Shown: in pieces, positions 845 through 40,848 of the stretch | Numbering within the stretch: the first letter of the stretch is position 1 | Layout: each line of letters opens with the position of its first letter | UHGV virus genome: UHGV-0010228 | Source of the DNA: a virus | Strand: one strand, 5' to 3' | DNA: 64,000 nucleotides | Translations under genes and position numbers: made by a program | Notes under the pieces: generated by a model | Databases searched by the model: none | What the model was told of the DNA's origin: nothing | What the model saw: only the letters and a program-made list of their open reading frames with translations

Positions 845-1510
845 TTGCATTTATACGAAAAAGACGGGAAAAAATATCCATCAGTAACAACAATTGTACA
901 TTCTTTAGGAAGTGATGATATTGTCAAATGGTCAAATTTCTTAGGATTTAAGCATATTAAAGTACAAACTGAATTAGATAGAACTGCATCATTCGGAACA
1001 TTAGTTCATTCACATTTACAACATATCGTTGATCCTTCGTGTACTGATGAATTGATAGAACCAAAAAATTCTATTGAAAAATATGATCTTGATAAAGTTA
1101 TTAAAATATTTAATGATTATTTCAAAAATTTTAAATATGAAACTTTATTTACTGAAAGATTTATATTATCTGAAGAATTAGGATATGCAGGTACAATGGA
1201 TTGGGTTGCTAATGTAAATGGTAAAATAATGCTAAATGATTTTAAAACTGCCAAAGCCCCATATGTATCAATGATGTTTCAATTAGGTGGCTATTATAAT
1301 TTATTACAATCAATAGGTCAAGATGTCGATCTAGCATCTATTATAACAATAAATACATCTGGATGTAGAATGCACCCAATACATAAAGAAGATTTAATAT
1401 TTTATGCTAATGTATTTAATAGTCTTGCTAAATTTTATATATCAACGGAATTATACAATAATCCTAAACCTAAAATAGATTATGATATAATATCATCATT
1501 GCAGGAGTAA
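845..1510 (+). CDS. PD-(D/E)XK-like nuclease (RecB/Cas4/YqaJ-type fold suspected)
   Basis: 221-aa ORF with TTG start and GGAGG RBS. Motifs GTMDW...LNDFKTAK (D...D/E-x-K) and QLGGYY resemble PD-(D/E)XK recombination exonucleases. It lies adjacent to the Mre11-like gene. Confidence 0.45.
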   Translation: MHLYEKDGKKYPSVTTIVHSLGSDDIVKWSNFLGFKHIKVQTELDRTASFGTLVHSHLQHIVDPSCTDELIEPKNSIEKYDLDKVIKIFNDYFKNFKYETLFTERFILSEELGYAGTMDWVANVNGKIMLNDFKTAKAPYVSMMFQLGGYYNLLQSIGQDVDLASIITINTSGCRMHPIHKEDLIFYANVFNSLAKFYISTELYNNPKPKIDYDIISSLQE

Positions 1511-4849: not shown

Positions 4850-4891
4850 AATAATTTATCCTCCTTATTATGTAAATTAAATGTATTTATT

Positions 4892-4908
4892 CACCATAAT
4901 AATATATT
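4892..4908 (-). promoter_or_regulatory. Conserved promoter-like motif copy
   Basis: Minus strand reads ATATATTATTATGGTGAATAAATACAT...GGAGG. Confidence 0.5.
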
Positions 4909-4920
4909 TTTATAAAAAAA

Positions 4921-4952
4921 TTTAGAATATCGCAATATTGCGATATTCTAAA
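4921..4952 (-). terminator. Terminator: perfect palindrome tttagaatatcgcaatattgcgatattctaaa
   Basis: Follows gene 4971..5357 on the minus strand and is followed by a T-run on that strand. This ends the nrdD operon. Confidence 0.6.
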
Positions 4953-4970
4953 TTTCTATAACTTGATTTT

Positions 4971-5357
4971 TTATCGTCTTTCTGATAAATAATTAACTAT
5001 TGAATCATAAAATTGATCAACATCAATTATCTCAGATTTATAATTATCAATCCGCCTTACGAAACCAAATATTATAGTTGCTTCTTTGCGGAACCTTTTA
5101 AAATATATCGATGGATTGGTTGCATATGGATTTATCACATTATTCATCCCTATACGTATGTATTTTCTGCATCTCTCAATACAATCATATATTCTAGTTG
5201 CAATAGCTGTAATAGGGATATTTAATGGTGTTCTATTACATTCTAAATGTATAGCAATTTTAAATCTCTCTTTAAGAATGTTTTCATAAAGATTACTAAG
5301 TTTAATATTAATATCAAATTTAGTCATTCCATTATTAACCATCCATTTTCTATACAT
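4971..5357 (-). CDS. hypothetical protein (128 aa)
   Basis: ORF with GAGGAGG RBS. Confidence 0.6.
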   Translation of the reverse strand: MYRKWMVNNGMTKFDINIKLSNLYENILKERFKIAIHLECNRTPLNIPITAIATRIYDCIERCRKYIRIGMNNVINPYATNPSIYFKRFRKEATIIFGFVRRIDNYKSEIIDVDQFYDSIVNYLSERR

Positions 5358-5372
5358 AATAATTCCTCCTCT

Positions 5373-5741
5373 TTATAACCCTTTTATTCTATTATATCTA
5401 CGCATAAGATTACTTATATCAATAATTAATTCCTCACGTATATGATATATCATATTAGTTTGAAATGAATCTAATAATTTATCATATTTTTCCATTGAAA
5501 GGCTTTTTTCATATACCTTAACTATGTATTCATGTACTGAAAAAAGTCTTTGGGTAACTTCGAGTGAATCATGACATTTTTCTCTAGGCTCATCTTCCCA
5601 ATATAATTCAAGATCAACTAAGAATTCTTCAAGATCTTTATCATATAATCTAAGGGCTTTCTTATAGATTTTATTCAATGCACTAAATACAAAATATACA
5701 TCTGATAATGATTTTATATTCTCAATTTTAAAAATGTTCAT
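5373..5741 (-). CDS. hypothetical protein (122 aa)
   Basis: ORF with GAAAAGGAAA RBS, located immediately after nrdD exon 2. Confidence 0.6.
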   Translation of the reverse strand: MNIFKIENIKSLSDVYFVFSALNKIYKKALRLYDKDLEEFLVDLELYWEDEPREKCHDSLEVTQRLFSVHEYIVKVYEKSLSMEKYDKLLDSFQTNMIYHIREELIIDISNLMRRYNRIKGL

Positions 5742-5772: not shown

Positions 5773-5840
5773 TTAAAGATGTAGAACTCGAGAATTTATT
5801 TCTTTGGTCTTACCCTCATTCCAGAAATTGCTTCCAAGAT
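5773..5840 (-). CDS. nrdD: Anaerobic ribonucleoside-triphosphate reductase NrdD, exon 2 (C-terminal 22 aa)
   Basis: Minus strand reads at|ctt gga agc aat ttc tgg aat gag ggt aag ... cat ctt taa. Joined to exon 1 it gives ...RRTCG-Y-LGSNFWNEGKTKEINSRVLHL*. A G (omega-G) precedes exon 2. Confidence 0.8.
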
Positions 5841-6156
5841 CTTTTATACCCTCGGTTTCCCGATATTTTAGTAGGGGAATAGACTATACAATACTATTTC
5901 TGATTATTTTTATGACAAAATCGACCTTTAGAATCTCGTGCCTTAAAACACAGAAATAGTTCTCTATTATAGTCGTTGAACGTCCATCCTATATTTCTAT
6001 AGATGTTTCGCTGCGTTTGATTACCCAATCCTTAATGATTTTACCATACCGATTCCGTTACTAATCGCCACTATCTATATCACTATGATAGCTTGGTTAT
6101 TAAGGCTCTAAGGGACTCCCCGCAGTTTAAGAGATTTAACGTGGACTATCTCGTTA
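5841..6156 (-). ncRNA. Group I self-splicing intron in nrdD (316 nt, no ORF)
   Basis: Internal guide GUCCAC (complement of + 6141-6146) pairs with exon end GUGGAU, with a terminal U-G. P-like element AACUGCGGGGAG, R element GUUCAACGACUA and S-like element UAUAGUCUA are present. The segment is GC-elevated and ORF-free. Confidence 0.8.
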
Positions 6157-8248
6157 ATCCACACGTGCGGCGTACCACTGTAAGTTTAGTATGATCACGA
6201 CATCCGCAATTAGGGCATTCCCAGTCTCCATCTTTTATGACTATCTCACCATCAAATCCGCAATTACCACAGTAATCGGATTTGGTGTTAAATTCTCCAT
6301 ATAATATATGATCGTATATGAACTTAATTAAAGCTTCTACTGCAGATAAATTATTTTTCATATTAGGTATTTCTACATATGAAATACAACCACCTGTACT
6401 TATATTCTGATATGGAGCTTCAAATTCAAATTTACTAAATGCATCTATTTCTTCTCTAACATCAATATGATAAGAATTTGTATAATACCCTTTATCGGTG
6501 ATATCTTTTATATCACCGAACTTTTCTTTATCTATTTTTGCAAATCTATAGCATAAAGATTCAGATGGTGTACCATATAATGCATATCCTAAATTCTCTT
6601 CTTTATTCCATTCTACAACTTTATCTTTCATATACTGTAAAACTTTAAGGGTAAATTCTTTTCCTTCTTTACTAGTATGTGATTTACCTAACATTGCTAT
6701 TGATAATTCATATACACCGATATAACCCAGAGATAATGTTGAATATCCACCAACTAATAAATCATCAATAGTATCTTCTGCATTCAACCTAGCTAATGCA
6801 CCATACATCCAATGTATAGGTGATGACTTAGCTTTAGTACCTCTGAGTGCTTTATATCTCAAATATAATGCTCTATGGCATAATTCAAGTCGTTCATCAA
6901 ATAACTTCCAGAATTTATCCATATCACCATTAGCAATTATACCTATCTGTGGTAAGTTAATACTTACTACACCCTTATTAAATCTACCTTCAAATTTATA
7001 ATTTCCATTTTCATCTTTCCATGGTGATAGTGCAGATCTACATCCCATAGGTGAGAACACATTTCCTTCATAATTCTGTCTCATTATCTTAGCACTGATA
7101 TAGTCCGGATACATTCTCTTAGCTGTACATTTAGCCGCTAAGTGTGTGAGATAATCATATTTACCACCTGTAAGATTATTATGCTCATCAAGCACATAGA
7201 TAAGCTTAGGAAATGCTGGTGTTATATATACACCATATTCATTCTTAATACCCTGATACCGCTGATTAAGAATAGCTTCAATTATCTGTGCAACTTCTTC
7301 AATATATGGATCATCTGGTTTAAGATTTAAGAAAATTGTAATAAATGGTGATTGACCATTTGTAGTCATTAATGAATTTAACTGATAATCAATAACCTGG
7401 ACTCCAGCTTTTAATTCTTTATCAACCATATCATCAACTATAGACTTTATAGTTTCTTCATCAATTTTACCATGTGATGATTCTCGAATTTGCTTATCAA
7501 ATTTCTCTCTTGATTTTCTAAGATACTTTCCCAAGTGTCTAATATCTACAGACTGACCACCATATTGTGAAGATGCAACTGCAGCAATTATCTGAGTCAT
7601 AATGGTACACGCAACTCTAAATGATTTAGGACTTTCAATCATCTTACCATTCATTACAGTACCATTATCAAGCATATCTCCTATATTTATGAGACAGCAG
7701 TTGATTATTGGTTGTAGAAAATAATCTGCATCATGGAAATGAATGATACCATCTTCATGAGCTTTTACAATATCTTTAGGTAATAAAAGTCTCTTAGTTA
7801 AATCTTTAGAAACTTCACCTGCTATTAAATCTCTCTGAGTAGAGGCTAAATATGCATCTTTATTTGAGTTTTCTTCCATAACATATTTATTATTATATCT
7901 AACTAATGATAATATCGACTCATCTGTTGTATTCTGCTCACGAACTAAATTTCTAGAATATCTATACGTAATATATTCTTTAGCAACAGGATATTCTTCA
8001 TTTACTTCATATCTAAGAATATTATTGATTACCTGCTCTTGAATATATTCAACATCAGCAATAAATTCAGGATCATCTGCAAGATAGGAATCAATATTAG
8101 CTTCTACATTAGAAGCTATTCTCTGAATTAATTTTTCGCTAAATCTAGCATTTTCAGGAACCTGTAAATTTGCTTTACCAATAGCGCTTGCTATCTTTTC
8201 TTTGTTGAAATCAACAATCTGACCATTTCTTTTACGAACTTTAATCAT
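6157..8248 (-). CDS. nrdD: Anaerobic ribonucleoside-triphosphate reductase NrdD, exon 1
   Basis: About 697 codons with a C-terminal Zn ribbon (CGNCG...CPNCGC). The sequence ...VVRRTCG runs into the intron. The annotated ORF's 'LTR*' tail is intron read-through. GGAAGGAGAA RBS. Confidence 0.85.
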
Positions 8249-15716: not shown

Positions 15717-18700
15717 TTATAATGTAGCTATTTTATTATACATTGAATTTAGATTAGGATTCTTTAATGATTTTGCACTTTTTGCTCTACTTCCAGTAGA
15801 AATATTATTTGTCTTATTACCACCAATAATTGTAGTGTTACCACTATTTGTAATGTTAGTTGGACTAGAATTCTTACTGTCACCATACCACTTGTCAATA
15901 GTATTAGCAATAGTATCGAGTCTAGATTCAACTCCATCATTATTAGCATTAATAAATGTATTCTTATTAATAAATCCACCATTTTCAGAATTGCCTCCGA
16001 AGTATGGAGCATCTGGGTTTATATTATATCTCTTTGCCATATTAACATTTGCTATATTTAACTTCTTATTATAATCAGGCCCTAAACCTACTAAGCTATA
16101 TGATGCAGGATTGATCCATGACCCGTTTTTCTTTACACCATAATGTAAGTGGTTACCTGTAGACTTGCCAGTAGATCCAACAAGACCAACTTTAGCACCC
16201 TTAGCAACTCTAGCGCCCTTAGACACTAAGCGCTTACTCTGATGAGCGAAGTAATGTTGAGTTCCCTTACTATCTGTTACTACAACAAGATTACCAAATC
16301 CACCAGTACTACCAGGAGATTCCGATCTAGTAACAGTACCCGATACAGGTGTATAGATTGGAGTTCCAGCTGGTGCTGCAAAATCTATACCATTATGCAT
16401 CTTACGTTTACCGCTCTGTGGATCTGATCTATATCCGAATGGACTTGAAATTCTCGTGTACTTCAATGTTTTCTGAATGGCTTCTTTAGCATTATTACCA
16501 ACTACATTAACTGATGAACCAACTGAAGAGCCAGATAAAGAAGAAGATGATGACTTAGATGTAGTATTAGTGTTTGATGATTTTCCAGATGAGTATTTAG
16601 AATTTATCCAATCCCATAAATCTCCCATCTTTGATGCTTTCATTGCATTTCCAACACCTTCTGCATATCCACTTATCATTTCACCCCACGTGGAGTTACC
16701 ATATCCAATCGGAAGATCAATATCTCCCCAGCCATAGATATTTTTTCCACCAACAGAATCGTATTGTCCTAAATTATAATTTACATATAACCGCTTTAAT
16801 TTATTTTCATAATCAATTTTTGCCATCGGGATATTATTTGGATAATCATACGTTGATGTGCAGTATCCAGCATTAGCAACTGCGTGCATTGCATCATATG
16901 CTGTAGTTGCAGTTCTAGCACCACTATATAACTTACCCGAAAGCACATCCCAATATCTAACTACACTATCACCAATGGTATTATATTTAGCCAACTTACC
17001 TTTTGGCATTACACCAAACATATTATTACTACTGAGAGCTCCACCGGCTGATCCTAAGCTTGTTTCTTGAATCGCTTGCGCCAGCGTTAATGAAGGTGGT
17101 AATGATGTTGATCTGGCGTTATCTTGAGCAAATTTTGCAAGAATATTTAATCTTTCACTTAATGATTTCTTTGCCCACTGTCTTCCACTAACATTTAATT
17201 CAGCCGGTATAGTAATTGAAGATCCGTTAAAATCTACAATTCCCGTACTACCTAAGGTTTTACCATCTTCAGCAGTTTCATAGTCTGATGATACATCACT
17301 TTCCAATTCAGAAGCAATTGCTTCCCATGGATCTGTACCATTCACATATGCTGTCATATATGAACTAATAGCACCCGCAAGTCGCTTTAATTTTGTGAAA
17401 AGATTCTCGCCTTTTAACGAACCTAAAAAGTTCATAACTCCTTCTCTAGTATGCTCTAATAAGCCGGAAGCTAAAGATTCATCAGTTGCTGCAATACTAG
17501 ACATATCAACTCCGTTTACATAGTATTCAGAATTATCAACTCTTTCTTGCATATCTTTAATTTTTGAAGATGATAATCCCCAGTTTACGTAAATATATGA
17601 CAATCTAGTTCTCTCGTGCTGTTTTATTACACTTTTAGACTTATATGTAACATTTGTACCTGTTTCAGTTTCACCATCTTTAATTACTATCGAATATTTA
17701 TTATATTTTTTATTTATTGGAATTTCGACATATCTCCAATAATCTCTTAAAGTATAATATTTATCCCTATCTGCTGATTGCATTACTGTATCTACAAGTC
17801 TTCTTAATTCAGCATCAGTAATTTTAGATACTGGAACGTTTTTCTTTCCAATAGTAGCAACATTACATACATCTGTAGATTTATTAAAATAATCAATTTT
17901 TGTTATTGTAGTATCATTCGATCCAGTCGAACTTTTCCACTTTTTATATACATATTCATAGATATATCTAGTTCTAAAAATATTATCACCATAAGTATTA
18001 ACTTTCTTTCTCCAACTTAATGCTTCATATTTTTTATATCCTTCTACAATATATTTATCATATAACTTAAAATCGGATTTTTTGTAAGATAATATTAATG
18101 AATATAGCGCAGTATTTCCAATACCTGCTAAATCTTTAGTTTGTTCAGGGACTGGTGGAATAGATTTCTTAATTGCACAGAATTTATATGGATCCGCTAA
18201 ATACTTATTTTCAATATCTCTTGAAGTCAGCTTCGTTTTATTTGCTGCATTATATAATTTTGATGGTGCCGGCGGATTATAATTTGTAGTTGTTTTAGCT
18301 TCATTTTTCTTTGCAGTTGTAATATCTTTAACCAATTTTGATTTATTGGATAGCTTATTAAGGGTTGATGATATCAGTCCATACCCAAATGGTATATCAT
18401 ATGCAGTCTTTTTTGTTTTATACATATCTGGAATATTGATATTACCATAACCATATGACCATCCACCAGTTGCATTGTTGATGACTGATGATGCTGAATA
18501 ACTCTTAGTCTTACCATCCATTGGATCTTTGATAATGATATTACCATTTGAATCCATACCTGATGCTACAACTATATGACCAGCTGATGTGAATGGATCA
18601 TTTGTATGATCTCCTCTACCGGCTACTATTGTAGGTACTCCAGATTTTATATTTGTATATAATTCGGATCCTCTAGTTACTTGATGAGGCTTTAATCCCA

Positions 18701-21700
18701 TTTCTGCAGCACCTTTGGTGAATAATGCTGCATTAGCCCCGCCCTGAGTAATATATCCATTAGCAGCTGCCATTTTACCAATGTCTCCAGGTGAAATCAT
18801 TTTACCATTAATATCATTTGCAATCATTGCTAATGATGTAGGTCCACATCCACCGTTTGCCATAGTAGATGGCTGTCCATTTGGTAATGTGCCTAATGGA
18901 ATACTTGACCACTGAGCATTTTTCTGAGATAATGCCTGACCATATCCAAAACCAACAGGTCCTCTGCCAAAACCAGCATTATTTATATTTGAAGATTTAT
19001 TTCTATTATTAGATGTATTAGTAGATGCTCCACTTCTAATAGTACCTCCACTAACATCATTCGTTATATAATCATCATTATAATCAGTCATAGTATAGCC
19101 ACTGTATGCACCAGCAGGTTTACCATAACCTAAAGCTTTATTCATAGATATGATTGGATGTCGAATCACACTCCATACACGTTTTATTACACTTCTATTT
19201 GCTATAGTGTCACTATATTCATCTAATGTTAAATCATCACCATTTTCTGCATTATATTGAGCAGCTTCTTCTTCAAATCTTTTCTGAGCTTCATCAAGAT
19301 TAAGAGCAAACTGATCATTGAATAACCCAGATAATTTATCATATAAGAACGATGCAAATTCACATTTAAGATCACATCCTTTAAATGCACCTACAACTTC
19401 TAATGTTAAGTCTATTACAATACCTACACTAATACCCATAAGGCATTTCATTACTGATGATATGAATCTCATTAATAAATCAACATCATTTGCATTTACT
19501 TTGAATAAATTAGCAGCTTCAAAGAATCCAGTTGCTAAATCGTATACACCGAATAATATTCCTATCGGAGAAGTAGTTATTCCGGCCTTAGCTATCTGAG
19601 TTCCTAATAAAGTTGCATATTTCATATATATTCTATCTTCTGATAATATAAATGTTAACTTATCTTTGAGCCATGAACTAATAGCAGATATTGTTTTAGC
19701 AATAACTGTCTTTTGTCCACTCTTATCTTTCATTATTTTACCTAATACTTTTAGTACAACCTTATTCTTTGCAATTGCACTTATTCCTTTTTCTACTAAT
19801 CCAAATGCTTTTCTAATAAGACCTTTTCTACTTTCTTTAACTGCATCACTAGCTCCTGTTTCAACAACGCTCTGTGTTGATTTCTTAAGAATATCTTTTT
19901 CAAAATCAGTTGTTGCTTCACCTGCAGCAGCCTTTGCAGTTGCTTCAGCAATAGCACCAGCTTCGGACTTTGACATAGTAAATCCAAGATCAAGGGCTGT
20001 ATCTTTAATAATGTTTCTTCTAGCAATATCCACAATTGATTTGCTTACAGATTCTGATGCATATTTTTCAAGTACTCCTAATCTTTCTTCAACTGGAAGA
20101 TACTTTAATACTTCTTCTAATAATTCTTCAGGTGCTTTATGAACACTAAGGCCTTTAGCAACCATAGCTCCAGCACCACTTTTAACATTACCAGCAGCAC
20201 TTTCAGCAGATATTCCTTTGAGAATATCATATGCTTGCTTATCATCTATATTTGAAACTAATACTTTATTGACTTCGTCTAATGTCTTATCAGATATATT
20301 ATTTAATGCGCCATTCTGTAATACCCTAGCTCCAATATCAGATGCACGTCCACTTCTAAGACCTGTAGAAGATACTATAGTATTTATACTTGATCCTGCT
20401 ACTGATCTAGCAACTGAACTCGTAGCTTTAATAGCGGCATCGCCTAATGCGGCACCTCTAGCTCCACCATATAATGCCCCTGTAACTGGCGAAATTCCTC
20501 CTGGCATTAATCCAAAAGCTCCACCAACCGTAGCACCCAGGACTGCACCGGCACCCTTATATAGCAATTTTCCAGTTCTACCACCACGAGCAGCATTAAT
20601 AGCACCTCTAACAAATCCATTTAATCCTATTCTTTGTGCATCAGTATGCTCAGCATATGTTGCATTTCCATCTTCATCAATACCTATAGCATCTTGATCT
20701 CTAGTATATGAAATAGTACCATCTTCATCAACATCAATAACATTATTACCATTAGCTTGCAAGCCTTGAATCATTGATGCTCTTTGCTCTTTGCTCATGT
20801 GAGCAGTTGATAATGTGTATACTTCAGTTGTATCAGTTTTAAACTTCCATCCTGGGACTAGTTTACCAACAGTAACATTCCATAATGCTTTAAGAACTGA
20901 TCCTGCTATAGTTGGAATTACAGAAATAAATGCATTCATCATTGGTTCTGCTAATGTATTAAACATGACCTTTATAACATCAGCAATATAATGAGCATTC
21001 TTTCCTATATTTTCAAATACTTTAGTTATTGATGGGAATATGTATTGATTCCAATACATTGGGAAGTTTTCTGAGAACTTATTAATACCATTACCAATAG
21101 ATGTTAATCCATGCTCTAATGTTGGTAATACATATTGATCCCAAATTGCTCCACGCTCAATGAAATTAGAGAATTCCTGAGTCTTAGCTTCAAGTCTAGC
21201 CTGGAAACCAGGTCTTATAATTTCAGCTATACCTATAGTTATACCTGCTACAGTGTATGCAGGAATAATTTTCTTAACACCAGCAACTACTAATTTAGCA
21301 GGAAGGGTATTGCCAACCGCACCTAATACACTTCCAGATACTCCTAAAATCTTTCCAAGAGCTTTTCTAATTATAGATGTATCATTTTCAGTTGGTTTTT
21401 CTTCTTCTTCATTAGTTTTAGCAGCAGATGTTGCACCTATAGTTGCAACTGAAGTTGCACCTTTACGAACTTCCTCAGTATCTTCATCTTTTCTATTAAG
21501 AGCAAAAAAGCTCTTAATATTATTTTTCATATTTTGAACATTCTCATTTTCTGTTATTTTATATTTATCCATTATACGTTTACCGAAACGCTTTAATGGA
21601 TTTCCTTTTGACGTACTCTTTCTCTTCTTTCTAACATCATCACCAGTAATATCACCATCTGTATTGATTTCAACATCAACTGCAGCAGCATCAGCAATAT

Positions 21701-24700
21701 CCTGATTAATTTTATTAGCTTCTTTCTGAAGATTTTCATTTTCTTTAGCAAGATTTATCTGTTCTTCCTGAAGCTTATGATTTAATCCTGCTAATTCATT
21801 TGTCTCTCTGAATAAATCAATTATCTTCTGTAAGTAAGATGACTTAGCGTCGTCATTATCTTTAATCTTAGATTCTACAAAATCTGCTAAACCATTAATA
21901 CCTTCAGGACCTAATCCCTTATCAATTTTACCAGATTTCTTAACTCTCTTAAGATTTTCAATAACGCTAGCATTAGATGCATCTTCTGATGTTCTACCAC
22001 CAAATGTGAATCCTGAAAGATCTACATCTCCTGCATACGCAGCTTTAATTAATTTATCAAGGAATATATCTTTATTAATACCTACTCTAGAATACATCGC
22101 ATCATCATTAAATCCAACATTCATTCTCGTAGCTTTTCTGCGTATATCTCCATATTTTCTAACATATTCTTCACGCATAGCTTCATATTTATTCTTGTCA
22201 GCTTCAAACTGATTCTTCTTTGAATTATATCTAAATCTCTTTTTCTCATTCTCATCTTTACGCTTTCTCTGCTTTACAAAATCTCTAAAATTACCAGTAG
22301 CAAAATATCCTGATTCTCTATATTCGTTAAATAAATCATCATCTAAGATATCTGCACTAAGATTACCAATATCTTCGATACCCATACCACTAGTATCTAT
22401 TCCATGTCTCTTTAACTTCTTTAATATTCTATCTGCATATTCAGTTCTATCAGCTTCACTAGTAAATTCATTTATTTTAAGATGGCTATTTAAAGCCTTC
22501 CCAGCAAAGAAATCTCTTATTGACTGGAGATAATCTTCTACTGCTGTCTGATAGCGCATAGTGCGTTCTCTTGCAGCTTTTTCTTCTGGGCTTTCCTGAA
22601 CTTTAACACCATCACGCATTATCTGCTCTTCAAGTGTGCCATTCTTTACAGCCTTAGACCATTCTCCACGTCTATAAAGTAAATCCATAATATCATCAGA
22701 TGTTTGTAATCTATTCAGATACTTATCATCTTTCATACCTGCTTTACGGAACATCTCACGATATCTCTTCACCTGTTCATCTGTTAAATCTACTTCTCTA
22801 CCACCAAGATCTTTAATTGTGATATTTTCTCTGATCTTATTGACCTTTTTCCACATCTTATTTTCTTTCTTGGCAGCTTTAGCTTTTGCATTTAGATCAT
22901 CTAAATCATTATCTGCTGTCATCCAATCAAATGCATTTCTACCAAGATCTGACATTTGATCAGCCCATCCTTCTTTTGCAGCTCTAGCTATATCACCTTT
23001 ACCTCTAATAGCTTGGAATATATCTACAGCTTTTCCTAATCCTGTTCTGCTATTACCAGCTTCACGTTCAGTTCTCCACTTACCCATGAGCATAGTAGCA
23101 ATATTTCTACGATATTCTTTTCTATAATCACCCATAGCATCTTTACGTTTACCACGAGTCAATAACTCTAAACCACGAAGACCTATAGAAACCGGAGCAA
23201 CTGCACCATAGATTCCTAATGACGCCGTTTTAGTTACAGCTTTAGTGATAAGCTTAGTTAATGACGCTACTGGACCAAATATTCTATGAAGGGCACCTTC
23301 AATAATAGTCTTAGCACCATCACCTATTTTTTCAATAACCGCTTTTATATTGTCTACAATATTATCTTTAACTTCTTTTATACTATCAACTATTGGACCA
23401 AATGCTTTTCTAAATGGTATTGTAATATTTTTTCTAATGGTATTTAAAGTTCCCATTACATGTTCTTTTGCAGGTCCTATGATATTATCAATTATAGTAA
23501 CCTTCATAACATTAGCCATTCGTCTTAAAAGACCATTAGTTTTTCTACCTATTACATTACCATTTTCATCAACTTGCTCTGTACCAAATAAGTATTCATT
23601 AAATTTCTTACTTGCAGAACTCATTCCGATTACCATACCAGCAATACCCATACCAATAGGTCCACCAGCAGATAATGCTGCAGGAATAAATCCCATATGA
23701 GACATCGTAGTAGCAGTTAATGCACCAATAGCAAAACCTTTTATTCCCTTACCGATCATAGGGAATAATTTGCCGAGTCTTTCTTTAGATTTATTCCAAT
23801 GATTTGATAACCAAGTTCCGCTGCGTTTTCCATCAGCACCTTTTTCACCAAATAACATTGATTGGAAAGACTCATTATTCTTTAATATACCTAATGCCGC
23901 ACCTAATAACGCACCACCAATTACACCAGAAGGTAATAATGCAGATGTTAACACTCCACCAGCACCAAACTGAGATACTGTCGAAGGCAATACTATTGAT
24001 TTTATAACACCTAATGTTGCACCACCAATTGCAAATGGTAAAGCTTTCTTAAATGATGCTTGCATCTTTTTAGTGAATATACCACCATGACGCTCACCAT
24101 TATCATCCATCTTACCAAACATTACAGACTGGAATGCTTCGGTGTGACTAAGAATTGATAGACCAGCCGCAGCGATAGCTCCACCTAATACAGTGTGAGG
24201 TAAAAATGCAAGACCGGTTAATCCTAAATTTTGTCTAGTTGCTAATAATCCGAAAATACCACCAGCTATTGCAGCTGCAGCTGCTTTAGGAGCAATCTTC
24301 TTTGCAGATTCTTTAAATTTTTCAAAGATATTCTGAGTAACTTTCTTTTTCTTAGTACTATCATTACTACCTTTTATATCTTCAGCAACATCTTCTGCTG
24401 CATCTTCAATTTTTTCTGCACCATTATATATCGTTAACGCAAATTGATCTTTTGCTGACTCGATCATATCCGCGGAATTATCAACTCCAACTGTGAATCT
24501 TTTCTTAGCACCTATAAGTTTCTTTCCAGTGAATCGTTTATAGTTACGCTTAGGGCCTTCTAATAATTTTGTCTCAGTAGCATTTATATATTTCTTATCT
24601 TCTACATCATCTGTAAGATTACTAGTAATATTTACTGTAGATTTTCTATCTCCTGGCTTTCTGAGTTTCCTCTTAAGAGATTCTTTTGTAACCCCTTCAG

Positions 24701-27680
24701 CCAATTGTACTTTACGAGGATCATTTTCCATTTGATAAACTTTATTTCGTTTATCTTTTCTATGTCTATCAGTCCATGATAAATATTTAAGATAAGTTTC
24801 ATTATTTTGCCAATCCTCACCAAATAAGTAAGTCATGGTACCACGCTGAATCTTATCGTATCCTTTTCCTAATTCTTCTTTGGTCTTTTTCCAAAAAGAC
24901 TTTTTACCATCCTTAGCTTTCTTAACCTGATCTTTAAATATACCATCTTTTTCATCAAAGAAATATTTCTTTATCTTTTCTCTAAGTTTTTTAGATGGTT
25001 CACTATCCCAGAATTTTGATAATAATCCATTTTCACCAAATAATGAAGATGTGAAATTAGTAAAGCTTGCAGATAAATTAGAAATTGCTATTGTATTAGC
25101 ATTTGCATTCTGCATTAAAGCTTCTTCTGGGGTATTTGGTGTTGGAGCATCTTGTAATCTATTAACTAAATTATTTCTAAGAGCAGTATCCTGTGCAACC
25201 TTTCTCTGGTCTCTACCAAGAATATCTTTTGGATTTCCGGTAATGTCCATCTTTTCAACTTGTGCACGAATATCATCAGTATCATTACTATGCCTAGCTC
25301 TTCGATTACGCATTCTATTGCGTAATGCTGCTTTATTACCACTAAATTTTACAGACCGTTTAGTACCAACACTATATGTGTTATAATCCAGATCATCAAA
25401 ATCAAAATCATCGGCGCTTCTAACTGGTCTGTAATGTTTATAATCGAAATCATCTTCGAGATCTTTATTTATCCCATATACAGTTCTAAAAAGTCTATCA
25501 TCTACAGGATCTACAAATTTTGATCTAGCATATTTATTCATTCTCTTCTTGCGCATTGCTTCGGCACGTTTAGGAGAGAATTTTCCAACAATTTTTTCTC
25601 CAAGATGAGTATTCTTTACTATCCATTCTTGATAATATTTCTTAATTATTTTCTTACATTCAGTCTTTTGCTCATTGATAGATGTAGCTTTATCGGCTAC
25701 CTTTTGTATTTCTTTATAAAATCCAGGTTCTGATGCGATATCTTCAATAATATCATCAGTAATTCCCATTTCTCGCATATAGTTCAATATACGTTCATCA
25801 ATCAAGCTTGAATCCATAAAGGCATATTCAAAATGGTTAATATCGAACTTTCTTCTACCACGTTCATCAGTACGTTTAAACTTTATATTATTTCTTCTAT
25901 CATTCCAAGCAGTTTTTCCGTACTGATTATTAATGTTTCTAAATATTGAAGTATCTGATGATCCAATATCAAATAACTTCTCGTTCAATCCAGCAATTGA
26001 CTCATTTATATAATTATCATAATCCATTATAGCTTGCTTATATAGATTATAATTTTCTTTCTTAAGATATGAGATTGCCTTTGCGAACTCAATACGTGCT
26101 TGTTTATCATCTATATTATCAAATATTCTATCATTAGTAATTTCACTTACTCTAGATGAAACCTTTTTTCTTTGCTTCTTATCACCAACTCCATTTATTG
26201 CATCAGTAATAGATTCGGCCATATTATTAAGAGAATATTTAAGCTCATCATTGAAATCTTTTTCAATACGATCTTTAGTCTTGAACATTCCTGTTTCATA
26301 ATCATAGTATCTCTTATTACCTTTACTATATGAAACTCGATTAAATCCATTAGGATCAACATTGAGATTTGATTTGGATAATATCTTACTGATATTAGCA
26401 ATATTATTATCCATACTACTCAAATATTCAGGAATTACTTCAACTATAGCTCTTTGAGCATATCCATTCCATGGTAAAGCATCTTTTGTATATCCACTAA
26501 GGCTTAATCCTTTTAATTTATTTCGGTCATTACCAAAAATATCACTAATTCCTAATAATGACCATATCATCTGCCCACCAAAGCCTAAACCTTTTGGTGA
26601 ATAACTCCCAATTCTTTTCAATATCTCATCGGCATATTTGCCAATCTTTTCATCAAATTTCTTTAATGATTTTGGCATTGCCATACCAATGAATTTTTCT
26701 GCAATAAATCCTACAGGATCATTCTTTATTTTCTTTATGGTATCTCCTCCGCCCATTCCTTGACCAGGAAGCATGAGCTGAGCCATTGTACCTAATAATG
26801 AATTTCCAAAATTATTTTTAACGTATCCAAGATATTCTTTTACATTAAATCCACTAGAAGTGTCAAAGTTTTTGCTTGAAGGTTTATCTTTAGAATATTT
26901 ATATTTTGTCATATTTTCAAGCATATCGCCAATTCCACTCATCATATCATTTGCAGATGAGAAGAAATCGCCCATAGTTTCATATGCTTGAACTGTATTT
27001 GAATTATGAAATTCTAACAGTTTTTCAATATTATCATTTATTCTATCAACCTTATGATTTAAGGTCATAAGTGATGAATTCAACAAATTCGTTCCATATA
27101 GAACTGAATTTATTATAGCATCAGCATTAGCACTAGAAAGTTTTGCATTTGTCCTATTTATACTATTAGCTAAATGCTCCATTCCTTTTACTTGTGCCGA
27201 ACTTGATAGCACAATTGACTTCGCAACACCAGCAGATGCATTCATATACACTTCTGCGTTTTTTGAATTATTTGTACTATCAGAAAACTCATCATCATCT
27301 AAAGCAAAATCATCATTTAAATCAAAATCTCCCATTATATCATTTTCAAATGAATCATATAATTCATCTGATACAATATTTGAGAAGACTCCCGAATTTA
27401 ATTGCTCTTTTGCTCTATTAAAAGTATCTCGAGCAGCTTTAGCGAGTTTATTTTTACCCATCTCTCTCTGCTCTTGGGTCTGCACATTCTTAAATTTTCT
27501 TGATGTATTTCTTATCTCCTTATTAATTTCTGAAATACCTTGTGCAGTATTATATGTTGATGGTAATACTTCTTTAGCAGTTATCTTAAAAGCATTACCA
27601 ACTGACGATCCAGCATTTCTTACCCAAGATTTTTTCTTAGATCTCGAACTGCTAGATCTAGATTTTATAGTTCTAGCCAA
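15717..27680 (-). CDS. Giant 3987-aa virion/tail protein: tape-measure-like glycine-rich TM region plus C39-like peptidase, lytic transglycosylase and M23 peptidase domains
   Basis: Uninterrupted ORF with TTG start and AAAGGTGG RBS. The middle has Gly/Ala-rich membrane-spanning segments (AAAAIAGGIFGLLA..., GGPIGMGIAGMVIGM). Domain motifs: GGCGPTSLAM...GHIVVASGMD (C39-like); LTLAQAIQETSLGSAGG...NNMFGVM (SLT/lysozyme-like); HNGIDFAAPAGTPIY...GNHLHYGVKKNG (M23). Confidence 0.85.
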   Translation of the reverse strand: MARTIKSRSSSSRSKKKSWVRNAGSSVGNAFKITAKEVLPSTYNTAQGISEINKEIRNTSRKFKNVQTQEQREMGKNKLAKAARDTFNRAKEQLNSGVFSNIVSDELYDSFENDIMGDFDLNDDFALDDDEFSDSTNNSKNAEVYMNASAGVAKSIVLSSSAQVKGMEHLANSINRTNAKLSSANADAIINSVLYGTNLLNSSLMTLNHKVDRINDNIEKLLEFHNSNTVQAYETMGDFFSSANDMMSGIGDMLENMTKYKYSKDKPSSKNFDTSSGFNVKEYLGYVKNNFGNSLLGTMAQLMLPGQGMGGGDTIKKIKNDPVGFIAEKFIGMAMPKSLKKFDEKIGKYADEILKRIGSYSPKGLGFGGQMIWSLLGISDIFGNDRNKLKGLSLSGYTKDALPWNGYAQRAIVEVIPEYLSSMDNNIANISKILSKSNLNVDPNGFNRVSYSKGNKRYYDYETGMFKTKDRIEKDFNDELKYSLNNMAESITDAINGVGDKKQRKKVSSRVSEITNDRIFDNIDDKQARIEFAKAISYLKKENYNLYKQAIMDYDNYINESIAGLNEKLFDIGSSDTSIFRNINNQYGKTAWNDRRNNIKFKRTDERGRRKFDINHFEYAFMDSSLIDERILNYMREMGITDDIIEDIASEPGFYKEIQKVADKATSINEQKTECKKIIKKYYQEWIVKNTHLGEKIVGKFSPKRAEAMRKKRMNKYARSKFVDPVDDRLFRTVYGINKDLEDDFDYKHYRPVRSADDFDFDDLDYNTYSVGTKRSVKFSGNKAALRNRMRNRRARHSNDTDDIRAQVEKMDITGNPKDILGRDQRKVAQDTALRNNLVNRLQDAPTPNTPEEALMQNANANTIAISNLSASFTNFTSSLFGENGLLSKFWDSEPSKKLREKIKKYFFDEKDGIFKDQVKKAKDGKKSFWKKTKEELGKGYDKIQRGTMTYLFGEDWQNNETYLKYLSWTDRHRKDKRNKVYQMENDPRKVQLAEGVTKESLKRKLRKPGDRKSTVNITSNLTDDVEDKKYINATETKLLEGPKRNYKRFTGKKLIGAKKRFTVGVDNSADMIESAKDQFALTIYNGAEKIEDAAEDVAEDIKGSNDSTKKKKVTQNIFEKFKESAKKIAPKAAAAAIAGGIFGLLATRQNLGLTGLAFLPHTVLGGAIAAAGLSILSHTEAFQSVMFGKMDDNGERHGGIFTKKMQASFKKALPFAIGGATLGVIKSIVLPSTVSQFGAGGVLTSALLPSGVIGGALLGAALGILKNNESFQSMLFGEKGADGKRSGTWLSNHWNKSKERLGKLFPMIGKGIKGFAIGALTATTMSHMGFIPAALSAGGPIGMGIAGMVIGMSSASKKFNEYLFGTEQVDENGNVIGRKTNGLLRRMANVMKVTIIDNIIGPAKEHVMGTLNTIRKNITIPFRKAFGPIVDSIKEVKDNIVDNIKAVIEKIGDGAKTIIEGALHRIFGPVASLTKLITKAVTKTASLGIYGAVAPVSIGLRGLELLTRGKRKDAMGDYRKEYRRNIATMLMGKWRTEREAGNSRTGLGKAVDIFQAIRGKGDIARAAKEGWADQMSDLGRNAFDWMTADNDLDDLNAKAKAAKKENKMWKKVNKIRENITIKDLGGREVDLTDEQVKRYREMFRKAGMKDDKYLNRLQTSDDIMDLLYRRGEWSKAVKNGTLEEQIMRDGVKVQESPEEKAARERTMRYQTAVEDYLQSIRDFFAGKALNSHLKINEFTSEADRTEYADRILKKLKRHGIDTSGMGIEDIGNLSADILDDDLFNEYRESGYFATGNFRDFVKQRKRKDENEKKRFRYNSKKNQFEADKNKYEAMREEYVRKYGDIRRKATRMNVGFNDDAMYSRVGINKDIFLDKLIKAAYAGDVDLSGFTFGGRTSEDASNASVIENLKRVKKSGKIDKGLGPEGINGLADFVESKIKDNDDAKSSYLQKIIDLFRETNELAGLNHKLQEEQINLAKENENLQKEANKINQDIADAAAVDVEINTDGDITGDDVRKKRKSTSKGNPLKRFGKRIMDKYKITENENVQNMKNNIKSFFALNRKDEDTEEVRKGATSVATIGATSAAKTNEEEEKPTENDTSIIRKALGKILGVSGSVLGAVGNTLPAKLVVAGVKKIIPAYTVAGITIGIAEIIRPGFQARLEAKTQEFSNFIERGAIWDQYVLPTLEHGLTSIGNGINKFSENFPMYWNQYIFPSITKVFENIGKNAHYIADVIKVMFNTLAEPMMNAFISVIPTIAGSVLKALWNVTVGKLVPGWKFKTDTTEVYTLSTAHMSKEQRASMIQGLQANGNNVIDVDEDGTISYTRDQDAIGIDEDGNATYAEHTDAQRIGLNGFVRGAINAARGGRTGKLLYKGAGAVLGATVGGAFGLMPGGISPVTGALYGGARGAALGDAAIKATSSVARSVAGSSINTIVSSTGLRSGRASDIGARVLQNGALNNISDKTLDEVNKVLVSNIDDKQAYDILKGISAESAAGNVKSGAGAMVAKGLSVHKAPEELLEEVLKYLPVEERLGVLEKYASESVSKSIVDIARRNIIKDTALDLGFTMSKSEAGAIAEATAKAAAGEATTDFEKDILKKSTQSVVETGASDAVKESRKGLIRKAFGLVEKGISAIAKNKVVLKVLGKIMKDKSGQKTVIAKTISAISSWLKDKLTFILSEDRIYMKYATLLGTQIAKAGITTSPIGILFGVYDLATGFFEAANLFKVNANDVDLLMRFISSVMKCLMGISVGIVIDLTLEVVGAFKGCDLKCEFASFLYDKLSGLFNDQFALNLDEAQKRFEEEAAQYNAENGDDLTLDEYSDTIANRSVIKRVWSVIRHPIISMNKALGYGKPAGAYSGYTMTDYNDDYITNDVSGGTIRSGASTNTSNNRNKSSNINNAGFGRGPVGFGYGQALSQKNAQWSSIPLGTLPNGQPSTMANGGCGPTSLAMIANDINGKMISPGDIGKMAAANGYITQGGANAALFTKGAAEMGLKPHQVTRGSELYTNIKSGVPTIVAGRGDHTNDPFTSAGHIVVASGMDSNGNIIIKDPMDGKTKSYSASSVINNATGGWSYGYGNINIPDMYKTKKTAYDIPFGYGLISSTLNKLSNKSKLVKDITTAKKNEAKTTTNYNPPAPSKLYNAANKTKLTSRDIENKYLADPYKFCAIKKSIPPVPEQTKDLAGIGNTALYSLILSYKKSDFKLYDKYIVEGYKKYEALSWRKKVNTYGDNIFRTRYIYEYVYKKWKSSTGSNDTTITKIDYFNKSTDVCNVATIGKKNVPVSKITDAELRRLVDTVMQSADRDKYYTLRDYWRYVEIPINKKYNKYSIVIKDGETETGTNVTYKSKSVIKQHERTRLSYIYVNWGLSSSKIKDMQERVDNSEYYVNGVDMSSIAATDESLASGLLEHTREGVMNFLGSLKGENLFTKLKRLAGAISSYMTAYVNGTDPWEAIASELESDVSSDYETAEDGKTLGSTGIVDFNGSSITIPAELNVSGRQWAKKSLSERLNILAKFAQDNARSTSLPPSLTLAQAIQETSLGSAGGALSSNNMFGVMPKGKLAKYNTIGDSVVRYWDVLSGKLYSGARTATTAYDAMHAVANAGYCTSTYDYPNNIPMAKIDYENKLKRLYVNYNLGQYDSVGGKNIYGWGDIDLPIGYGNSTWGEMISGYAEGVGNAMKASKMGDLWDWINSKYSSGKSSNTNTTSKSSSSSLSGSSVGSSVNVVGNNAKEAIQKTLKYTRISSPFGYRSDPQSGKRKMHNGIDFAAPAGTPIYTPVSGTVTRSESPGSTGGFGNLVVVTDSKGTQHYFAHQSKRLVSKGARVAKGAKVGLVGSTGKSTGNHLHYGVKKNGSWINPASYSLVGLGPDYNKKLNIANVNMAKRYNINPDAPYFGGNSENGGFINKNTFINANNDGVESRLDTIANTIDKWYGDSKNSSPTNITNSGNTTIIGGNKTNNISTGSRAKSAKSLKNPNLNSMYNKIATL
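16100..16465 (-). other. M23 (LytM-type) metallopeptidase domain of the giant protein
   Basis: HxxxD...HxH motif set: HNGIDFAAP, then NHLHYG near 16154. Confidence 0.7.
16760..17180 (-). other. Lytic transglycosylase (SLT-like) domain of the giant protein
   Basis: AQAIQETSLGS... catalytic-Glu motif encoded near 17040-17110. Confidence 0.6.
18455..18900 (-). other. C39-like (papain-fold) peptidase domain of the giant protein
   Basis: GGCGPTSLAMIAN...GHIVV. The cysteine is encoded near 18840-18850. Confidence 0.55.
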
Positions 27681-36003: not shown

Positions 36004-39000
36004 ATGCTATTCGAAAATTATGAAGATTGGAGAGTATATCCACCACAACCGAGGATATATTTCCCTAAAAATTCTTCAAAAAATAAAACTGCAGGATATG
36101 GATCAGCGTTATTTTTATTAACCCCCAAAACTACATCATCTTTCGAATTTATGAAAGATAAAAATGTAGCACTCAGAATGTCTTTATATAAATACTATAT
36201 GATAGAGACGATGTATAAAGAAAAAATTGGTCGAAAAAATGTCATATTAAATATGACTAGACAGATGGAAGCTTTATATAATGAAAATAATGTTGAAAAA
36301 GATACTACAATATCTTATATTCCTAGACCTCAGAAAAAAGCTAGATTAAAATCTGGTAATAATATAATTGTAGATTTATCAATGTGGATGGAATTATATC
36401 TTAAATATACAGTAACTATTCAGAATCCTAAGGAAAAGTGTAGAATATTTATAGATTTATTAGATAAATTGCTTAATGATAGTAATTATAATAATTATGA
36501 AAAATTAGTATGCATAGATATAAATTCATGGACTAATAGAGCGGCAGATTGTGTTATGATGAATCGCGATCTACTCAATAACCCTCTATCAATTTTAATT
36601 TATGCTATGGTTAAATATCCGGATTTATTAAATGGAAAACTTAAAAACTTTAGAATATATCTCGTAAATAGATCTAGTAAGCAGATTTTTCTCTTTAATA
36701 CAAAAGATATTATTAAAGATAATTATAACAAATTTAAGAGTAAGATCAAATTATTCAAGGGTATATCTATATCATCTTCTGAAACTCTTGAGGGCGATAC
36801 CAATATATCAGAAGGTGAAGCCAAGGCTATCGCTATCAATAATTATAAAAATAAAGTATTAAAGTCAATGAAGAGTAATCTCTTAGGTAACAGTAAGAAT
36901 ACTGAAATTCGAGAAATTACTGACGATGATGAATTGATTGATAGTAATGATGATTATGATGAGATCTTCGATGTTACTAAAGAAATAGAAGAAGAATCTG
37001 ATGAAGTAAAACCAACCGATGAAGATTCTAATCTTTTTGATGAAATGGGAGCAGAGTTAGATCTTGATGCTGAAGCTTTGGCTGAATTAGATAATATGAT
37101 TGGTGATATTGATGATGTATCAACTGATGATATATTGAATACTCCAGTAGATGAAGTTGCAGATGATCTTGCTGAACGTGTTAAAAATAATGTATTCATT
37201 GCGGAATTTAAACCTAAGAGGACAAGTGAGCAAGAAGAGCGAAATCGTGAAATGATGGATATTCAGGCAATAGCTCTTAATCAGGAAAATATTGATAATG
37301 CAAAAACCAAGATAATTGATACAACAGATTTTTCAGACTATATCAATTCTTCCAATGTAAATATTCTTAAATCAAAATATGTTAATTTTGATAAAGACTA
37401 TGTTGAAAAGAAAATGGAAGGTGACATAGACAATGCTGTTGCTTGCTTATCTGGAGCGACAGATAAGATATTCATCACCAATAAAGAAGTTATTGATTCT
37501 TCAGACTCTTTAAATCTTAAGAGGACTTTAAAATATTCCCTTGAAGATGAAAAAGGTAATAAAATGACAATAACTTTTGATGTACCTATTATAATTGATA
37601 ACTGCTATATCTATGTAAATGGTAGTAAGAAGTTGATAGGTCATCAGTTTATATTAAAACCTCTAGTAAAAACTGGTCCTGATACTGTTCAGTTAGTAAC
37701 TTCATATAATAAAGTATTTATCACTAGAGATGGCGTTGTAGATTATATATCTTCTAGCATTATAACTTATATGGAGAAGAATCCAGAGAAGTTTAAGTGT
37801 GTTAGGGGTAATTCATCAATTAAGAATAAGAAATATAACACAGCATTAGATTTTACAATGTATGCTAAGTTATTTACTAGATTTACAATTGGTGATGAAG
37901 AATTTATTACCGGCATTGAAGAATTTTATGATAGATACAATAAAAAATATCCAACTAAAAAACTTAAGTTGGATAAAAAGAAAATTGCTGAGAAGTATCC
38001 AATTTCATTTAATAAAAAGACTGGTGAAATAAGATATATGAAATCAACTGAAAGTTTTTCGGATATCTTATTATCAATCATTGATGAAGAAGATAAGAAA
38101 GCAATTAGTAGAATTAAAAAGAAACCTAGACTGGTTTATGTTAGGGCTAAATTAATGGGCCAAATATTCCCAATGGCTCTTCTTTTAATGTATCATGAAG
38201 GATTCGCGTCTATAATGAAACGTGCAGATATTGCTTATCAATTCACAGATAAGAAGTCATATAATAAAATGGATAAAATGAGATATGATTTCTTAGAACT
38301 ATCGGATGGATTAGTCGTCTGGGAACGTAGAAATATGTTAACTTCATTACTCATGAATGGCTTAAAGCGATTAGATTTTACACCTTATACAATAGAAGAG
38401 TTAGAATCTAAGGATACTTATAGGTCATTATTAGTCGACTTATATAATGGGGATAATTCTATTTCATATAAAATAGATCAGTTCTATGATTTTACAATAG
38501 ATTCTATTACTAAGGAGATATTAGAGGATATGAATTATCCTACAAATCTTCCTGATTTATTAATATTAGCAGTTAAGATGTTATGTGATAGCGCATATGC
38601 TCTTGAAAATAATATGAATAATATGAGAATTAGAAGTAATGAGGTAATTCCAGCGATTATTCATAAAGAAATAGCAGATGCATATAACTTATATAGAAAG
38701 ACATCTTATAAGAAGAAACCAGTTAATGTATCTATTAAACCAAATATCATAATTGATAAATTACTATCTGCTGATACCAATCTCATCGAGGAATTTAGTA
38801 CTATAAATCCTGTATTAGAGATAGAAAAAGCTCGTTGTGTAACATTTAAAGGCTATAGAGGTATACAGTTAGATAGAGCGATAACTCTTCCTAGACGTGG
38901 ATATGATCCATCAATGTTAGGAATTATGGGAATTTCAACATCATCAGATGCTAACTGTGGTGTAAATAGACAGATGACATTAGAACCTGCGATTACATCT

Positions 39001-39128
39001 ACAAGAGGATACTTGGAGGTAAATGGTGTTGAAAATGTAAATTCTTTAACAGATGCTAATTTACTATCGCCAGCAGAATTATTAACACCACTCGGTGTTA
39101 TACATGATGACCCCGATAGAACTGCGAT
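36004..39128 (+). CDS. Multisubunit RNA polymerase beta-like subunit, exon 1
   Basis: AGGAGGTG RBS. C-terminal part aligns by eye with bacterial RpoB: ...LDRAITLPRRGYDPSMLG... (compare RERAGFEVRDVHPTHYGR), RGYLEV (YGFLETPYR), LTPLGVIHDDPDRTA ([14 protein letters not shown]). The exon ends ...gcg at| and the 'IKKSLLDVAV*' tail is intron read-through. Confidence 0.75.
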
Positions 39129-40724: not shown

Positions 40725-40736
40725 ATAAACAAATTA

Positions 40737-40772
40737 TGAATATAAGATATTGTCTAATATCTTATATTCATA
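40737..40772 (+). terminator. Terminator hairpin after the RNAP gene
   Basis: tgaatataagatatt-gtcta-atatcttatattca. Confidence 0.55.
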
Positions 40773-40848
40773 ATTCTATATAAATTTTATGAATATATTA
40801 TTTTGATGATAATATTATATTTCTTAAACAGTGAAAGGAGAATTAAAA

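Follow-up and report, generated by a model that had tools for sequence, protein, structure and literature searches.

Predicted group I intron without an open reading frame beside the radical-glycine codon of nrdD in a huge, low-GC phage

The 64,000-nucleotide (nt) stretch of virus genome UHGV-0010228 analyzed here (hereafter the window) carries on its minus strand nrdD, the gene of a class III ribonucleotide reductase (RNR). The gene is interrupted, very probably by a group I intron devoid of an open reading frame (ORF) and inserted one base after the radical-glycine codon, whose excision restores the C-terminus of the protein. An earlier note, made from the letters of the DNA alone, had described a 316-nt ORF-less group I intron in nrdD; its coordinates proved exact, the core is complete and the fold covaries among introns inserted at the same site. 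The phage itself is a huge, low-GC one with no close sequenced relative, and megablast of the nrdD locus against phage genomes found no close relative, only a 53-nt match. The features of the locus are given below, with intron position 1 corresponding to window position 6156 and with a structure derived from the window copy.

6157..8248, minus strand: nrdD exon 1, codons 1-697 and the first base (U) of the Tyr698 codon
5841..6156, minus strand: predicted group I intron in nrdD, 316 nt, without an ORF of homing-endonuclease size
5773..5840, minus strand: nrdD exon 2, in which AU completes Tyr698, followed by LGSNFWNEGKTKEINSRVLHL and the stop TAA (5775..5773)
6141..6162, minus strand: P1, exon GUGGAU (6162..6157, -6..-1) with the guide GUCCAC (6146..6141, intron 11-16), U6157·G6146 lying at the 5' splice site
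6148..6153, minus strand: P10 5' strand CGAGAU in the P1 loop (intron 4-9), pairing with exon 2 +1..+6 AUCUUG (5840..5835)
6130..6134 UCUCU with 5965..5961 AGAGA, minus strand: P3 (intron 23-27 with 192-196)
6012..6124, minus strand: P4-P5-P5abc domain, from the Rfam alignment, RNAalifold and the family covariance model
6124..6119 UGCGGG with 6020..6019 and 6015..6012 (UC/CGCA), minus strand: P4, with an AAA bulge (intron 33-38 with 137-138 and 142-145)
6114..6112 with 6026..6024, minus strand: P5 (intron 43-45 with 131-133)
6105..6030, minus strand: P5a/b/c three-way extension (intron 52-127)
5985..6005, minus strand: P6 hairpin with a GAAA loop (intron 152-172)
5968..5974 GACUAUA with 5888..5882 UAUAGUC, minus strand: P7 (intron 183-189 with 269-275), in a pseudoknot with P3, presumed guanosine-binding helix
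5893..5960, minus strand: P8, a 10-bp stem (5960..5951 with 5902..5893, intron 197-206 with 255-264) with a 48-nt internal extension
5849..5877, minus strand: P9, outer CCC/GGG and inner UCGG/CCGA stem with a GAAA tetraloop (intron 280-308)
5841, minus strand: omega G (intron 316), invariant in the 11-sequence alignment

Unspliced, the ORF 6146..8248 (minus strand) encodes 700 residues and ends VVRRTCGLTR (...CPNCGCRDHTKLTVVRRTCGLTR) before the stop. Its earlier identification as an NrdD with a zinc ribbon and the terminus RTCGLTR is backed by Pfam and sequence alike, the Pfam matches being ATP-cone, NRDD (E=7e-177) and Gly_radical, and exon 1 contains the ATP-cone, the catalytic barrel, a Cys4 zinc ribbon (CxxC...CxxC) and the radical glycine G697. 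Termination falls 11 nt into the intron, at a UAG stop (6148..6146) that overlaps the internal guide. Joining 6157 to 5840 is in frame and yields a 719-residue NrdD ending RRTCGYLGSNFWNEGKTKEINSRVLHL, with a predicted ligated-exon junction of ACGTGTGGAT followed by ATCTTGGAAGC and a junction-spanning peptide TCGYLGSNFWNEGK. Coverage of the Pfam NRDD profile extends from 1-541 of 562 positions (589.9 bits) in the unspliced product to 1-562 (622.3 bits) in the spliced one, a gain of 32 bits; the latter matches NRDD with E=1.1e-186, together with Gly_radical and ATP-cone, and qualifies as a class III NrdD. Its residues 2-719 align with the solved NrdD 9d3x, and the alignment with the T4 C-terminus that the earlier note had suggested as a check extends to residue 604/605 of T4 NrdD (1h78), including YLG, FN.GK.KEI and RV.H.

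The same note held that splicing restores the glycyl-radical motif, which is true of the RxCGYLG...RVxH signature but not of the glycine itself, already encoded in exon 1, where the G697 codon GGA (6160..6158) is the last complete codon. G697 is recognized as the radical glycine because it is aligned with position G580 of T4, occupied by Ala in the 1h78 chain, which we take to be the G580A crystal form of T4 NrdD. It follows that the intron removes the 22-residue tail only, and not the glycine. In exon 2 the residues YLG..FWN.G..EI..RV.H are conserved and the stop stands where it usually does, and to judge from its sequence the class III RNR of the window phage is probably intact. The nrdD ORF is separated from the next gene by about 400 nt, in which every frame is closed by stops; that gene starts at 5741 and encodes 122 residues without a family match.

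Within the intron, all three frames contain stops and the longest internal ORF has 44 residues and a TTG start. The GUGGAU/GUCCAC pairing, the P, R and S elements and the omega G all lie where they had been placed from the letters alone, the P element UGCGGGGA at 6124..6117, the R element GUUCAACGACUA at 5981..5970 and the S element UAUAGUC at 5888..5882. The elevated GC content reported for 5841..6156 was likewise recovered (36% vs. about 21-30% for most of nrdD and for the downstream flank), the end of exon 1 being equally GC-rich.

The fold was compared among introns inserted at the same site. In four of them 97.9% of the cells were paired, vs. 39-46% in slid controls, and in 11 (at least seven sequence types) 90.2% vs. 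36-46%, percentages that are inflated relative to the controls because the structure was read from the window sequence. Counts of pairs changed on both sides are less exposed to this bias, and amounted to 21 (slid controls, 0-3) in the four-sequence alignment and 26 (slid controls, 7-11) in the 11-sequence one. None of 500 shuffles of the four-sequence alignment reached the observed pairing percentage, and the same applied to three of four other measures. Among the 11 sequences pairing was complete in P1, P4, P6 and P9 (100% of cells) and almost so in P7 (98.7%, three covarying pairs) and P3 (98%, every one of the five pairs covarying); the inner stem of P9 is paired in all cells, each of its four pairs covarying. 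The lower values of P5a (50.6%) and P8 (80.6%) are uninformative on structure, since MAFFT misaligns these columns for introns of a second architectural type ("type B"). The pairings with the exons change together with the exons themselves: P1 has 6 of 6 base pairs in all 14 same-site introns compared, with an A-U to G-C compensatory change and a U·G pair invariant in 11 introns, the guide tracking the exon throughout the 14 copies (GGAU with GUCC; GGGU with GCCC or GCUC). P10, of 6 bp in the window, has 5-8 bp in 10 of the 14 copies and covaries with exon 2 (CCGAUAU with AUAUCGG). The same helices were predicted by RNAalifold when it was applied blind to the P4-P6 domain in eight members of the family, which come from four host genes, and 24 of the 44 pairs proved compensatory.

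A tblastn search of phage genomes with the spliced protein gave 2923 records, and the closest NrdD found, that of MT835527.1 (65% identity), is uninterrupted (...ACCTGTGGTTATCTTGGCGAG). The Enterocloster phages CB457P1, CB473P1 and CB473P3 match the window NrdD only to residue 697, and their siblings CB457P2, CB473P2 and PMBT24 through residue 719. In CB457P1 (OP172753.1; locus L001, 3608..3900) a 293-nt insert is found, bounded as TGTGGGT/...G/ATATAGG (in the letters of the locus, ...ATGTGGGT/TAACTTTATAGGCTCACGTTAAACC...GGGGTATAAAGG/ATATAGGAACTC), and in CB457P2 the empty site is contiguous (TGTGGGTATATAGG; ...CTTGTGGGTATATAGGAACTC; ...CGTACTTGTGGGTATATAGGAACTC); this plus/minus pair therefore fixes the insertion point, which is identical to that of the window. 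The CB457P1 insert is also the best blastn match of the window intron (74% over 189 nt, E=2e-22). In GenBank the nrdD coding sequence of CB457P1 (WAX11094.1) stops inside the intron, the 293-nt intron and the 29-codon exon 2 being unannotated, and introns are unmentioned in the paper discussing the Enterocloster phages.

The site is occupied repeatedly. IMG/VR and GTDB genomes were scanned for the junction pattern, with mostly chance matches that were filtered afterwards; in a loose scan of GTDB genome contigs L172, L186, L224 and L225 were relevant after filtering, among the matches listed. At least 40 pattern-selected public loci have an insert at RRTCG/Y (the slash marking the insertion point), at least 37 of them with an identifiable exon 2, and the introns range from 160 to 711 nt. 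An identical 160-nt mini-intron without the P5abc extension occupies RRTCG/Y in 21 IMG/VR loci (including L013, L018, L021, L045, L056, L065, L072 and L084), on contigs of up to about 401 kb, and the nrdD of its carriers has further interruptions. The remaining same-site introns are ORF-less and 236-394 nt long, apart from two: that of L019 (711 nt) has in P8 an ORF matching Pfam HNH_3 (E=2.7e-13), and that of L097 (574 nt) is the mini-intron with an ORF in P8 which is HNH-like by sequence reading alone. No description of the RRTCG/Y insertion site was found in the literature searched. Since some same-site members carry an HNH endonuclease in P8, the site is most likely a target of endonuclease homing; the codons around the radical glycine would most likely be a recurrent target of an HNH homing endonuclease, and on the homing reading the window copy would have lost the endonuclease gene or never possessed it. 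A tblastn search with the L019 HNH found no homolog in the window, and neither this search nor Pfam applied to the neighboring ORFs detected a free-standing or remnant homing endonuclease near nrdD.

Some of the loci scanned deserve separate mention. In three IMG/VR loci (L039, L081 and L113) the 5' end of the intron resembles that of the nrdD site, TGTGGAT/TACACAATCTAGTCCACGTTAAA followed by a P element, and the upstream frame is not NrdD; these may be related introns in another gene with the same exon-end heptamer. Downstream of nrdD exon 2 in the human-gut 'Bacteriophage sp.' MT835556.1 (L007, about 4850..5100) there is an HNH/NUMOD-like N-terminus (..IPDFAGYYASADGHI, then a stop), stop-interrupted, perhaps a free-standing homing endonuclease in decay next to an ORF-less intron. 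On a contig of a Clostridium sp. metagenome-assembled genome (JAKSUK010000071.1; L172, 607..1319) a group II intron, with Rfam D1-D4 and domain 5/6 matches above the gathering score, precedes the nrdD group I intron by about 4 kb.

Group I introns in phage genes of nucleotide metabolism have been described since T4, and a group I intron in a phage nrdD is a long-known kind of element. What is new, and minor, is this insertion site, its recurrence and the unmarked public annotation (one annotated carrier examined). The introns of CB457P1, CB473P1, CB473P3, MT835556.1 and the IMG/VR gut-phage contigs are inserted, as in the window, after the first base of the Tyr codon, and share with the window intron the helices, the absence of P2, the GAAA-capped P9 and the P1/P10 logic, whereas their carriers differ from the window phage (NrdD 46-62% identical). 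The window intron is set apart by a longer P8 extension and by the AAA bulge in P4, and the type B introns by another P5 extension and an extra hairpin in P4.

The parallel with the T4 nrdD (sunY) intron drawn in the earlier note holds in general terms, both being group I introns of a phage class III RNR gene whose splicing is needed for full-length NrdD, but not in position. The T4 intron measures 1033 nt and encodes the GIY-YIG endonuclease I-TevII, T4 nrdD being annotated as a two-piece join; in tblastn its break falls between residues about 249-250 and 277-283 of the window protein, about 410 codons upstream of the window site, and T4 RRTCGYLG...HRVKH is read without interruption. With a different site and a contiguous RRTCGYLG in T4, positional homology was rejected in favor of a separate insertion event in nrdD. 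No T4 sequence appeared among the listed blastn matches of the window intron.

Relatives of the core are widespread, as blastn matched it to 306 phage records including Staphylococcus, Enterococcus, Bacillus, Listeria, Lak, crAss-like and other phages, and four of these matches, when fetched, lay in endolysin, DNA polymerase, unidentified ORFs or unannotated sequence. Introns of Herelleviridae and other Firmicutes phages, Lak and crAss-like phages (Twort-like Staphylococcus endolysin, SPO1-like Bacillus, cr271_1 DNA polymerase) have in common with it the P4-P6 domain, in which P5abc forms a three-way junction, and P, Q, R and S elements that are nearly identical, with a mean column identity of 74% over 168 columns. 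They differ in having extra sequence between R and P3' and other P1 guides, P3' following R directly in the nrdD-site introns. Subgroup IA2 is the phage type, in which the Twort and SPO1 introns are placed, and peripheral helices of the P7.1/P7.2 kind are subgroup-specific; the subgroup of the nrdD intron is left uncertain, since neither P2 nor P7.1/P7.2 was seen in it.

Fragmentation of nrdD has been reported before. It is the most often split RNR gene among 128 RNR-containing phage genomes (PMC3653736), and in the 'Jug' jumbo gut phages it is fragmented by group I introns, with some junctions spliced in metatranscriptomes, huge gut phages being rich in introns (Sci Adv 2026, PMC12880540). 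The carriers of the 160-nt mini-intron are probably 'Jug' phages, on account of their size range (about 356-401 kb) and fragmented nrdD, and IMG/VR contigs of this size have the mini-intron at the same RRTCG/Y site as the window. The window phage is not one of them, as only nrdD matches, at 55-62% amino acid identity, and its nrdD has a single interruption instead of several further ones.

Following the established group I pathway, the guide GUCCAC and the exon end GUGGAU would form P1, and free guanosine bound in P7 would attack after U6157. The terminal G5841 would then dock in P7, P10 (CGAGAU with AUCUUG) aligning exon 2, and the exons would be ligated, so that only the spliced mRNA would encode the 719-residue NrdD with its RRTCGYLG loop and 22-residue tail, the unspliced mRNA giving the 700-residue protein. 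Catalysis, like homing and the loss of an ORF, is here something we infer from the sequence.

A second intron of the same family lies in the RNA polymerase (RNAP) beta gene of the window, a multisubunit-type RNAP:

36004..39128, plus strand: RNAP beta exon 1
39129..39541, plus strand: group I intron in the RNAP beta gene, 413 nt, from the family covariance model, the frame and profile continuity
39542..40724, plus strand: RNAP beta exon 2

The ORF 36004..39159 matches phrog_3148 from 287 to 1055 and the ORF 39537..40724 from 1060 to 1421. For P1, ACUGCGAU, whose last base is 39128, has its complement GUCGCAGU within the gap, and a 3' splice site after G39541 fits both the frame and the continuity of phrog_14872 coordinates (1008 to 1011). 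The joined product ...GVIHDDPDRTA-M-SYKQTKYMIPV aligns continuously with the bacterial beta motif EHDDANRALMGANMxRQAVP, the insertion falling inside the conserved HDD..R..M....Q..P motif. Since the 3' splice site comes only 15 nt after the P7 3' strand, P9 must be minimal or absent. The earlier note had taken this intron for a related one, and rightly so: the family covariance model, which comprises the P4-P6 domain and R and was built without the RNAP intron, gives the RNAP gap a score of 82.7 bits (E=5.7e-15, over model positions 1-156) and the nrdD intron one of 162.9 bits, the next best match in the rest of the window having E=0.73. The sign of kinship it had relied upon, a shared P element, fared less well, as many phage group I introns have the 8-mer UGCGGGGA as a conserved part of their core and blastn between the two window introns found no significant similarity. 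As only the covariance model links them, the two introns are kin in structure and family and not a recent duplication. Rfam gave no match at E<=1 for the RNAP intron in a 2.2-kb search. In the 106-nt gap that follows RNAP beta exon 2 (40725..40830) the family model finds no intron; beyond it, the ORF 40831..41925 (plus strand) encodes 364 residues without a family match.

The anatomy of the sequence, its covariation, the comparison with the empty site and the protein that splicing restores thus point to an ORF-less group I intron in nrdD, a reading in which we place high confidence and against which a number of observations nonetheless weigh. Besides the dependence of the pairing percentages on the window copy, the splicing steps are those of the general pathway, and for the window phage the reading is built on sequence. 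Rfam Intron_gpI (RF00028), the covariance search suggested as a check in the earlier note, aligns over its full length (1-253/253) with P, Q, R and S in register in a 601-nt search (28.9 bits, E=1.9e-5), but this lies below the gathering threshold of 50 bits, and whole-window Rfam scans missed the intron both by gathering score and by E-value. The derived structure has no P2 (J1/3 is GUUAAA) and no P7.1/P7.2, P3' coming right after the R element. Folded in isolation, the intron has a weak free-energy z-score (-1.58, with 4 of 100 shuffles folding as well), which was not used as evidence. Furthermore nrdG, which the earlier note had thought worth looking for, was not found in the 64-kb window by tblastn with three NrdG queries (best E about 1), and for this reason NrdD activity in the window phage is not established; nrdG may lie elsewhere in the genome or be supplied by the host. 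In relatives it is directly downstream of nrdD, a place taken in the window by two small ORFs on the minus strand (5373..5741 and 4971..5357, 122 and 128 residues) without Pfam or PHROG match. As to Rfam, three homologous family members in other genes (L008, L010 and L011) score 51.7-58.6 bits, above the gathering score of Intron_gpI, and transitive homology therefore also supports the group I membership of the nrdD intron.

Some of these observations would suit a degenerate group I relic that no longer splices and leaves nrdD inactivated, a truncated pseudogene with a fossil tail: the window copy encodes no endonuclease, and decay is to be expected of introns in that state, the Rfam score is under the threshold, and nrdG is missing from the window where relatives have it next to nrdD. 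Such a relic is nevertheless improbable. No helix of the core is broken, the exons as they now stand are matched exactly by P1 and P10, the 700 codons of the exon 1 ORF are free of interruptions and the 22 codons of exon 2 have kept their conserved residues and usual stop. Divergent phages have conserved ORF-less copies at this site while their pairs changed in a compensatory manner, implying that the fold is under selection. Even less credit can be given to a gene in pieces, in which the 700-residue protein would be complemented, without RNA splicing, by a separately translated tail peptide or glycyl-radical 'spare part'. Split RNR genes that work without splicing are documented in phages (PMC3653736, where the split nrdA of Aeromonas phage Aeh1 is cited), but here the exon 2 frame has neither start codon nor ribosome-binding site (...GGGUAUAAAAG/AUCUUGG), its product would have no more than 21 residues and a Tyr codon would be divided, and the intervening 316 nt are a conserved ribozyme fold instead of a spacer. 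Neither was a second NrdD-like C-terminus seen in the window, tblastx of ten nrdD loci having matched only 5773..8000. Chance likeness, or an interruption of another nature (intein, group II intron, translational bypassing or assembly error), comes last and is close to negligible. The window is AT-rich and short motifs do match by chance in it (seven R-like matches with <=2 mismatches, vs. 3.1 expected), nothing specific pointing that way; the family model, instead, singles out the two intron loci. An intein would need an in-frame ORF where all three frames are closed, Rfam scans found no group II signature in the window, and 316 nt are far beyond known bypass gaps. Since the sequence of the 700-residue ORF occurs also on other assembled contigs, among them an identical, independently assembled 6.3-kb Logan contig and contigs of the 0.2-1 Mb class, it is not an assembly artifact; an identical contig is present in the metagenome run ERR7738254.

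If the ORF-less intron splices as proposed, it could in principle act as a switch that in anaerobic infection sets what proportion of the NrdD subunits in the dimer can be activated, although we regard this role as unlikely. Were it true, the unspliced message would give a stable 700-residue NrdD that keeps G697 without the 22-residue tail, and the repeated occupation of the site, from the 160-nt to the HNH-bearing forms, would reflect retention for function and not homing alone. In T4, according to the title of a work cited in PMC3653736, the efficiency of splicing is linked to both translation and the state of growth.

The nrdD intron leaves the current understanding of group I introns unchanged, and its consequences are mainly of annotation. 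Gene callers cut NrdD at ...RTCG in intron carriers, as in WAX11094.1, and miss an exon 2 of 21-29 codons, a problem of nrdD annotation common to at least 37 public loci. The ORF-less, minimal (160 nt) and HNH-bearing forms at one site make up a natural series for the gain-and-loss cycle of homing introns, and the same series bears on how far a group I ribozyme can shrink. Judging from the two interrupted genes, at least two essential genes of the window phage (nrdD and RNAP beta) probably depend on RNA self-splicing.

As for the rest of the window, no tRNAs were found in it. The ORF 845..1510 (plus strand) weakly resembles a PD-(D/E)XK nuclease, the Pfam match (E=2.7e-4) falling just short of the cut-off. 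On the minus strand, 15717..27680 is a giant ORF of 3987 residues, the only recognizable part of which is a C-terminal M23-type metallo-endopeptidase/endolysin-like domain (residues about 3740-3870), and its product may be a giant tape-measure protein or a virion-associated lysin.

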